A DNA stretch of 64,000 nucleotides from Escherichia coli (GCF_001677475.2 NZ_CP015229.1), one strand, 5' to 3'; counted from the stretch's first letter, positions 32,273 through 35,450 are shown. The notes: generated from the sequence alone by a model not told the origin. Translations and numbers: made by a program.

Positions 32273-33961
32273 TCAGTTCAAATCACGACTCATTTTTTTC
32301 GCTCTTACTGGCATCCCATTTGCCACAAAATATCTTGCCGTGCTCCTCGGCAACGCTTCTTGCCCGCGAATCATATCCGCTATTTTCTCGCCAATCATAA
32401 TGGTCGTGGCGTTCAAATTGCCGGTGATAATCTGCGGCATAATTGACGCATCCACCACGCGCAGGCCTTCCAGCCCATGCACGCGGCCTTCGCCGTCAAC
32501 CACGGACATCTCGTCGTAGCCCATTTTGCAGGTACCGCACGGATGGAAGGCGGTTTCGGCGTGGTTACGCACGAACTCATCGAGCTGCTCATCCGTCTGG
32601 CATTCGACACCGGGGCTGATTTCGCGGCCACGGTATTGATCCAGCGCGGGTTGATGCATGATCTCGCGGGTGATGCGAATTGCGTCGCGGAACTCCTGCC
32701 AGTCCTGCTCGTGCGACATGTAGTTAAACAGAATCGCCGGATGCTGGTGCGGGGTGCGGGATTTAATCCGCACATGCCCACGGCTTGGCGAGCGCATCGA
32801 TCCGACGTGGCACTGGAAGCCGTGCTCTTTCACTGCATTCGAGCCGTTATAGTTAATCGCTACTGGCAGGAAATGGTACTGAATATTCGGCCACGCAAAT
32901 TCCTCTCGGCTGCGAATAAATCCGCCTGCTTCAAAGTGGTTGCTGGCACCAACGCCGGTGCCGCCAAATAGCCACTCCGCACCGATTTTCGGCTGATTCC
33001 ACCACTGCAGGGCAGGGTAGAGGGAAACCGGTTCTTTGCACTCATATTGCAGATACATCTCCAGGTGATCCTGAAGATTTTCGCCGACGCCGGGTAAATC
33101 ATGCACCAGCGGAATATCAAACTCCGCCAGCAGTTCAGCGCTACCCACGCCGGAACGTTGCAGGATCTGCGGAGAGGCGATCGCACCTGCACATAACAGC
33201 ACCTCTTTATTCGCTGTCGCGCGGGTTGAAATGGTGCTATCGCCTTCCAGCCACTCGACGCCCACCGCGCGTTTGCCGTCAAAAATGATGTGATCGGTCA
33301 TAGCGTGAGTACGAATGGTCAGGTTCGGGCGCGATTTGGCCTGATCGAGATAACCGCGCGCGGTACTGGCGCGACGACCCTGCGGCGTGACGGTGCGATC
33401 CATCGGGCCAAAACCTTCCTGCTGATAGCCGTTGAGATCGTCCGTGCGCGGGTAGCCTGCCTGCACACCCGCTTCAATCATCGCTTCAAACAGCGGATTG
33501 ACGCCGGGTTTGGAGGTGGTGACGCTCACCGGGCCATTGCCACCGTGATAGTCGTTTTCACCAATATCGCGCGTCTCGGCCTTGCGGTAGTAGGGCAGGC
33601 AGTCGAGATAACTCCAGTTCTCCAGACCGGGTTCTTTTGCCCAGTTATCGAGATCCAGCGCGTTACCACGGATGTAACACATGCCGTTGATCAGTGATGA
33701 CCCGCCAAGCCCCTTACCGCGTCCGCACTCCATGCGACGGTTGTTCATAAACGGTTCCGGTTCCGTCTCATAGGCCCAGTTATAGCGTTTACCCTGTAAC
33801 GGGAACGCCAGCGCGGCGGGCATCTGGGTGCGGAAGTCAAAACGATAATCCGGGCCGCCCGCTTCAAGCAGCAATACGGTCGTGTTGGGATCTTCAGTCA
33901 GACGTGTAGCGAGGACGTTGCCGGCAGAGCCGGCACCAATAATGATGTAGTCAAATTGCAA
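32273..33961 (-). CDS. betA: Choline dehydrogenase BetA
   Basis: ORF track frame 32273..34006; start assigned to TTG at 33961 ([18 protein letters not shown] Rossmann motif) with AGGAGG 5 nt upstream. Confidence 0.85.
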
Positions 33962-33974
33962 ATAAACCTCCTGG

Positions 33975-35450
33975 TTAGAATATGGACTGGAATTTAGCCA
34001 TCTCAACCTGGATGGACTTCACCTGGGTGTAACTTTGTAGCGTCATCACGCCGTTCTCGCGGCCAATACCGGAGTGTTTGTAGCCGCCAACGGGCATCTC
34101 TGCCGGGGATTCGCCCCAGGTGTTGATCCAGCAGATACCCGCCTCAAGCTGGTGGATAACGCGGTGTGCGCGGTTCAGGTCAGCCGTCACGATGCCCGCC
34201 GCCAGGCCGTAGTTGGTGTCGTTGGCGCGGCGAATCACTTCGTCTTCCGTTTCATATGTGAGGATGGACATCACCGGCCCGAAAATCTCTTCGCGCACAA
34301 TGGTCATTTCGTCGCTGCAATCGGTGAACACGGTCGGTGCAATCCATGCGCCGTTATCGAAGCCATCGCCTTTCAGTACATCGCCGCCGCACAGTACGCG
34401 CGCGCCTTCCTCTTTGCCTTTGGCGATATAGCGCAGCACGTTATCGCGATGCGGGAAGCTGACCAGCGGGCCGAAGTTAGTTTGCGGATCGAAAACGTCG
34501 CCCGCGCGAATGCGCTCAACGCGCGCCAGAATTTTCTGCTCAAATGCGGCTTTGCATTTCGCCGGAATAAACACGCGGGTGCCGTTGGTACACACCTGGC
34601 CGGAGCTGAAGAAGTTCGCCATCATGGCAATATCGGCGGCGAGATCGAGGTCCGCATCGTCGAAAACGATCAGCGGCGATTTACCGCCCAGCTCCATGGT
34701 CACTTCTTTCAGGGAGGAAGCCGCCGAGTTAGCCATCACTTTTTTGCCGCTGGCGACGCCGCCGGTAAACGACACTTTGGCAATGCCCGGATGCTCGGTC
34801 AGATACTGCCCGGTCTCCGCGCCCACGCCCTGCAACACGTTAAATACGCCGTCCGGCAGGCCCGCTTCGCTGTAAATTTCGGCCAGCTTTAACGCGGTAA
34901 GCGGGGTGACTTCGCTCGGTTTGAAAATCATTGCATTGCCTGCCGCCAGCGCCGGGGCGGATTTCCATAGGGCAATCTGGATCGGGTAGTTCCACGCGCC
35001 AATCCCCGCGACCACGCCGAGCGGTTCGCGGCGAGTGTAGACAAACGATGTCTCACGCAGGGGGATCTGGCTGCCCTCCAGCGCTGGAATCAGCCCCGCG
35101 TAATACTCCAGTACATCTGCGCCGGTAACGATATCGACGGTTGAGGTTTCTGAATATGCTTTTCCGGCGTCGAGCGTTTCCAGTTTTGCGAGTTCGTCAT
35201 TGCGTTCACGTAGAATATCAACGGCCCGACGCAGAATACGCGAGCGTTCCATAGCGGTCATCGCCGCCCAGATTTTTTGCCCCTGTTGGGCACTCTTCAC
35301 GGCGTGATCGACATCCTCGCGCCCGGCGGCCTGCACGGTCGCCAGCACGTTACCGTTGGCCGGGTTAATGGTCTCGAAGGTGCGACCGCTGGTGGCGGAG
35401 GTATAACCACCATGTATATAAAGCTGCTGTTCTGCCATTCGGGACATCAC
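33975..35450 (-). CDS. betB: Betaine aldehyde dehydrogenase BetB
   Basis: ORF track 491 aa [22 protein letters not shown]... Confidence 0.9.

Follow-up and report, generated by a model that had tools for sequence, protein, structure and literature searches.

At which codon does translation of betA, the choline dehydrogenase gene of the Escherichia coli bet operon, begin? The question arises in a 64,000-nt stretch of E. coli DNA (GCF_001677475.2 NZ_CP015229.1; hereafter the window), where the longest open reading frame (ORF) covering betA opens inside the preceding gene, betB. Two in-frame TTG codons compete as starts, one just downstream of the betB stop codon (TTG 33961) and one within betB (TTG 34006). 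The third cistron of betI-betB-betA is almost certainly translated from UUG 33961-33959, read as formylmethionine (fMet), with TTG 34006 unused. The position of the betA start is established by annotation, by the DNA of orthologues and by in vitro initiation on an identical sequence. The start at TTG 33961 is correct but ordinary, as it is already the standard E. coli annotation and nothing new.

The features of the junction all lie on the minus strand. The betA coding sequence (choline dehydrogenase, 562 aa) occupies 32273..33961 and ends with a TGA at 32275-32273. The betB coding sequence (betaine-aldehyde dehydrogenase; 33975..35447) begins at ATG 35447, is colinear with annotated betB and matches the Pfam Aldedh model with 599 bits; the BetB N-terminus is MSRMAEQQ, and the mechanical betB ORF opens one codon earlier, at GTG 35450. 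The betB stop codon, TAA (33975..33977), is 13 nt upstream of the betA start. Two bases separate it from a Shine-Dalgarno (SD) sequence, AGGAGG (33967..33972), and the 5-nt spacer TTTAT separates the latter from the initiation codon TTG (33959..33961), such that the order on the mRNA is UAA, 2 nt, AGGAGG, 5 nt, UUG. This TTG is homologous with the annotated start of K-12 b0311 and with the start called by PGAP in E. coli PCN033. The codons that follow it are CAA TTT GAC TAC ATC ATT ATT GGT GCC GGC; the predicted N-terminal peptide is thus (f)Met-QFDYIIIGAGSAGNVLATR and the 562-aa protein begins MQFDY.

The mechanical betA ORF opens 45 nt upstream of TTG 33961, at the TTG inside betB (34004..34006, minus strand). 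Its 577-aa product would carry 15 residues before what would become an internal Leu. The 15 extension codons are TTG AGA TGG CTA AAT TCC AGT CCA TAT TCT AAC CAG GAG GTT TAT, and their translation agrees with the extension peptide given in a preliminary description of the window. That description had preferred the TTG with the strong SD to an upstream ATG and had the longest frame starting at ATG 34006 inside betB. TTG 33961 and its AGGAGG 5 nt upstream are read directly from the sequence, and the downstream codons place the opening of the flavin adenine dinucleotide (FAD)-binding N-terminus at this TTG, as had been proposed. The distance of 14 nt from the betB stop also holds, since 13 bases lie between and the first T is 14 nt past the last base of the stop. 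The longest frame does open at 34006 within betB, but the codon at 34006-34004, rejected as an ATG, is itself TTG. What was taken for the upstream ATG is probably the ATG at 34000..34002 (minus strand), which lies in GAGATGG and encodes a Met near the BetB C-terminus in the betB frame, +1 relative to betA. As both candidate starts are TTG, codon identity gives no advantage to 34006 and the contrast of TTG with ATG fails; TTG 34006, being TTG and not ATG, is an even weaker competitor than had been assumed. It is a by-product of the overlap of the betB codons GTT GAG (Val-Glu) and no genuine start.

SD strength was scored as the duplex of the 16S rRNA 3' end with positions -18 to -4 of each candidate start. 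The duplex at TTG 33961 is -11.5 kcal/mol, within the best 0.65% of the 6154 ATG, GTG and TTG triplets present on either strand of the window (mean -3.0, standard deviation 2.5). AGGAGG occurs nine times on the two strands, with a start-like codon 4-9 nt downstream in only four cases. At TTG 34006 the duplex is -7.9 kcal/mol and is formed by AGGTGA (34019..34024, minus strand), a fortuitous SD-like hexamer in the betB codons for Q-V-K, 12 nt upstream of the TTG. The usual optimum for SD spacing is about 5-9 nt, and 12 nt is far too distant. In the minimum free energy fold of the junction, the SD and TTG 33961 are mostly unpaired and the region of the upstream TTG is paired. This fold shows no gain in stability over shuffles (z = -0.34) and was given no weight for that reason.

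BetA contains the conserved domains PF00732 (GMC_oxred_N; 214.9 bits, model positions 1-217 of 218) and PF05199 (GMC_oxred_C; 138.3 bits). The alignment with GMC_oxred_N starts at model position 1 and at residue 18 of the long form, which is two residues past the TTG-encoded Met. The GxGxxG FAD-binding motif starts at residue 9 of the 562-aa form and aligns with the N-termini of solved GMC enzymes. No solved structure aligned to the 15-residue extension, and the closest, that of a BetA orthologue (PDB 9lq0), aligns from the TTG residue onward. N-terminal additions of 5-40 residues or tags occur in some solved GMC enzymes, so a 15-aa extension is structurally possible and the argument from structure alone is not decisive. 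By its domains, motif, orthology and bet context, the product of betA in the window is a BetA of the GMC choline dehydrogenase family. Judged by orthology, it would oxidize choline to betaine aldehyde. With initiation at TTG 33961, the first beta-strand and GxGxxG loop of the FAD-binding Rossmann fold would lie at the extreme N-terminus, as in other GMC oxidoreductases.

Annotated E. coli genomes use the same start. From -60 to +30 around it, the junction is identical to those of E. coli PCN033 and K-12. In K-12 MG1655, b0311 is annotated at NC_000913.3 325577..327247 (complement), with 327247 the first T of the same TTG, and the PGAP betA of PCN033 opens there as well. Across 6.6 kb comprising the bet locus and flanking DNA, identity to PCN033 is 95.8%, and a 25-kb stretch around bet is approximately 97% identical to E. 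coli ARS-C301. Of 5183 E. coli records, 5107 carry a 61-nt segment of the junction with at least 99% identity, and a 601-nt region around it was matched in 5179 of 5426 complete E. coli genomes. The window BetA shares 97% identity with the representative of the E. coli BetA cluster, and database entries for E. coli choline dehydrogenase include the exact 562-aa protein (ANO87502.1 and others; 52 contigs). The 577-aa form is absent from approximately 15 billion predicted protein sequences.

Experimental support for initiation comes from INRI-seq, in which a synthetic E. coli transcriptome is translated in the PURE system and initiating ribosomes are stalled with retapamulin (PMC9825163). In Table S2 of that study, the betA (b0311) start at 327247 has 104.8, 89.4, 84.6, 69.7 and 91.3 counts per million in the five replicates (5/5) and the entry 'Peak identified TRUE', and b0311 has no entry in the table of alternative translation initiation sites (PMC9825163). 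Ribosome-profiling start-site data and an alignment of BetA orthologues had both been named in the preliminary description as checks on the start. The former bear out the proposal, as the in vitro peak falls at the K-12 equivalent of TTG 33961 (PMC9825163). The latter does so too: 115 of 120 cluster representatives and the DNA of 80 species place the start at the equivalent of TTG 33961 or, in some species, 1-2 codons upstream.

In these 115 BetA representatives, the N-terminus is M-x-[FY]-D-Y-I and coincides with the homologous residue. Of the other five, four start two residues earlier (MSQE or MTQE) and one has a 10-residue extension. Because the N-termini of the representatives are themselves predictions, the DNA of the betB-betA junction was read in 80 species and in E. 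coli PCN033 (loci L001-L081). The contig scan for these loci used six peptide patterns and returned no Escherichia; the pattern DLDNWAKE may mismatch other E. coli alleles, and MQFDYIII was presumably back-translated with ATG first. E. coli was covered separately through its complete genomes. The codon aligned to TTG 33961 is TTG in 34 loci (33 scanned species and PCN033). Besides Escherichia, the genera with a TTG start are Pseudocitrobacter, Enterobacter, Lelliottia, Leclercia, Huaxiibacter, Klebsiella, Raoultella and Citrobacter. The aligned codon is ATG in 21 loci, from Trabulsiella, Pluralibacter, Pantoea, Cedecea, Kosakonia, Tatumella, Rosenbergiella and some Pseudomonas. Moraxella and the other Pseudomonas lack a start at the aligned codon and have an ATG 1-2 codons upstream.

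The upstream extension is not conserved. Escherichia and Pseudocitrobacter carry an in-frame TTG at -45, as do most Enterobacter and some Citrobacter. In Klebsiella and Raoultella the junction spacer, AGGAGGTCATTT-TTG, is one base longer, which brings a TGA into frame at -45, and there is no alternative start. Citrobacter amalonaticus and C. sedlakii have the betB codons GTC GAG, so that the upstream codon is TCG instead of TTG. The -45 TTG is absent in all ATG-start species, and in nearly all ATG-start Enterobacterales there are in-frame stops at -3 to -27. Where the extension frame is open, in Enterobacter and relatives, every substitution within it changes a residue (L-V, S-F, Q-R, N-H, N-D and Y-F), and several of these changes are silent or tolerated in betB.

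The signals around the downstream TTG are conserved. The GGAGGT core (-11.5 kcal/mol) is invariant in 35 of 35 TTG-start orthologues (window included), and among the 32 TTG-start loci in which the gap from the betB stop to the TTG could be measured (window included), it measures 13 nt in 25 loci and 14 nt in the other seven. The 47 ATG-start orthologues have a mean duplex of -7.6 +/- 2.7 kcal/mol, and the gaps are 12-190 nt in all but one; because the TTG group is essentially one clade, the difference in SD strength between TTG and ATG starts is no independent evidence. In Trabulsiella, as in the TTG group, the second codon is CAA, CAG or CAT; it is GAA in other ATG-start Enterobacterales. TTG 33961 therefore combines a well-spaced SD, an aligned start codon in orthologues, an unconserved upstream frame and initiation in vitro, the features expected of a UUG start.

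Exclusive translation from TTG 34006, which would yield the 577-aa BetA given by a longest-ORF reading, is extremely unlikely. The frame is open from this codon, the -45 TTG is kept in the lineages named above, and AGGTGA does provide a duplex upstream of it. However, the codon is explained by the betB sequence in which it lies, its SD-like motif is too distant and the site would be covered by ribosomes elongating betB. Its equivalents are a stop in Klebsiella and Raoultella and TCG in the two Citrobacter species, and it is missing from ATG-start species. Moreover, the extension matches neither a Pfam model nor a solved homologue, accumulates only non-synonymous substitutions in the long-form frame, and belongs to a protein found in no database or gene call. 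A start downstream of TTG 33961 is even harder to credit, to the point of being practically negligible: no canonical in-frame start occurs between this codon and GxGxxG, and the next Met is residue 47, initiation at which would delete the FAD-binding beta-alpha-beta motif that aligns with Pfam from model position 1. No support for such a start was found.

A mixed use of the two TTG codons, in which the Escherichia/Enterobacter lineage alone would make a minor extended isoform, initiated at 34006, beside the major 562-aa protein initiated at 33961, is also very unlikely, since the extension is unconserved and its start would be a TTG with a mis-spaced SD inside a translated gene; the predicted fold also pairs the upstream TTG region, though it is no better than shuffles. 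What speaks for dual initiation, apart from the open frame in this lineage, is that the INRI-seq template did not contain the upstream codon and that Ribo-RET gave no bet signal (PMC9825163).

The same two points weigh against sole use of TTG 33961, together with several others. The betA template of INRI-seq, GGG-TCCAGTCCATATTCTAACCAGGAGGTTTAT-TTG, starts at -30 (PMC9825163), so the TTG at -45 was never offered to the ribosome, and the experiment demonstrates that TTG 33961 is sufficient but not that it is exclusive. In vivo Ribo-RET data (10.1101/520783), as re-tabulated in PMC9825163, list betA as 0/FALSE; this missing signal is probably due to bet being uninduced in the medium used. Neither in vivo data on the BetA start site nor an N-terminal peptide of the protein was retrieved, and b0311 and P17444 were both absent from the part of the TRAINSPOTTER N-terminomics supplement that was covered (PMC13245402). 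Annotated starts and the N-termini chosen by gene callers are themselves predicted, by a common logic of SD and homology. Finally, translational coupling of betB and betA would be deduced from the geometry of the junction only. Full-text searches of the literature returned no paper that explicitly gives betA a TTG/UUG start or that addresses coupled translation of the bet genes. The original sequence paper is reportedly that of Lamark et al. 1991.

The proposed model for initiation at UUG 33961 is as follows. A ribosome would bind de novo at AGGAGG, 5 nt upstream of the UUG. Alternatively, a ribosome terminating at the betB UAA, 13 nt upstream of the start, may remain bound to the mRNA and initiate again at the UUG (translational coupling), or the SD may capture ribosomes while translation of betB holds the site unfolded. 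The preceding junction has a matching design. The betI stop codon, TAA (35463-35461), is followed by the 13-nt spacer CCGAGGAAACGTG before betB ATG 35447 (35448..35463 for stop and spacer, minus strand), giving TAA-CC-GAGGAAACGTG-ATG with a GAGG-type SD and a 13-nt gap. The resemblance of the two junctions suggests that coupling could act serially along betI-betB-betA. The combination of a weak start codon and a maximal SD may set the level of BetA relative to that of BetB.

A single T-to-A change would turn the betA UUG into a stronger AUG, as found in other genera. Across the 35 genes with a TTG start, few fourfold-degenerate sites are invariant (8 of 197, 4%), yet the TTG is never replaced by ATG or GTG, which would function equally well. 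It is conceivable, though the odds are somewhat against it, that UUG has been kept by selection and not by drift and that, with the maximal SD and the fixed gap of 13-14 nt, it ties BetA synthesis to betB translation and so limits the amount of a membrane-associated flavoenzyme; the argument concerns a single site in what is essentially a single clade.

These results bear only on annotation quality control: under a longest-ORF rule, BetA would wrongly be assigned a 15-residue leader that overlaps betB. The locus also serves as a worked example of how a 1-nt indel in the spacer of a sister genus (Klebsiella) or a synonymous upstream change (Citrobacter) can decide between candidate start codons with no experiment. 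That UUG and a perfect SD have been retained together over the long term is a minor point on the tuning of bet operon expression.

Elsewhere in the window, betT (36177-39587, plus strand) is split into an N-terminal ORF of 554 aa (36177-37841) and a C-terminal fragment ORF (39153-39587); K-12 betT is 2034 nt (approximately 677 aa). Between the two parts is a minus-strand ORF of 353 aa (37996-39057) that contains PF01548 and PF02371, both domains of IS110-family transposases. The same arrangement in E. coli ARS-C301 is annotated as a betT pseudogene and an IS110-family transposase. betT thus appears to be interrupted by an IS110-family element and, if so, the betIBA genes of the window would be without a dedicated high-affinity choline importer. 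On the other side of the operon, the approximately 6-kb hyxR-hyxA-hyxB/ipbA island is absent at about 32184 (between ykgH and betA), as in K-12; it is present in ARS-C301 and in O55:H7/O157-type strains.

An insertion of approximately 767 bp relative to ARS-C301 lies between rclB and rclA (24550-25316). It contains minus-strand ORFs for an IS1-like InsA (24986-25258; MASVNIHCPRCQSAQVYRHG...) and for InsB' (24564-24959), and probably represents an IS1-family element inserted at rcl, the locus for resistance to reactive chlorine. A repeat finder at default settings reported no terminal inverted repeats for it. Two Rfam models were matched at gathering score: IS009 (RF02111; 4025-4223, plus strand, 193.5 bits) and naRNA4/CssrE (RF02564), a REP-derived nucleoid-associated RNA (51741-51810, minus strand, 66.9 bits).

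The closest known system is K-12 betA (b0311, NP_414845.1), which has the same TTG, the same AGGAGG, the same 13-nt gap to betB and an identical junction. The neighbourhood ykgH-betA-betB-betI-betT is the same in the window, and K-12 has 13-nt gaps at both bet junctions. The two genes differ near the 3' end, where the window betA has a run of seven A and K-12 has six, with proteins of 562 and 556 aa, respectively. In the window, the A7 run is at 32299-32293 within the betA 3' end (32273-32302, minus strand); K-12 BetA ends with RAKK. The additional A puts the K-12 stop (AAA AAA TGA) out of frame and gives the window BetA a 6-residue C-terminal extension. Deposited E. coli BetA proteins include both lengths, 562 and 556 aa, which fall into the same 90% cluster, and the A7 variant is common in E. 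coli.

ATG-start BetA proteins (Pantoea, Cedecea, Trabulsiella and Pseudomonas; PDB 9lq0) have the same N-terminal position or are 1-2 residues longer, and share the M-x-[FY] motif. They differ in their ATG, in longer and more variable gaps and in SD sequences that are weaker on average. Like translationally coupled junctions, those of bet consist of a stop codon, a short spacer containing an SD and the next start, the coupling in bet being suggested by this geometry alone. Like other UUG-initiated, SD-dependent bacterial genes, betA has a strong SD at optimal spacing, is read by initiator tRNA and initiates in vitro (PMC9825163). Compared with other UUG-start genes, betA shows nothing unusual; only the stability of its UUG, which is invariant in 35 orthologues, deserves mention.

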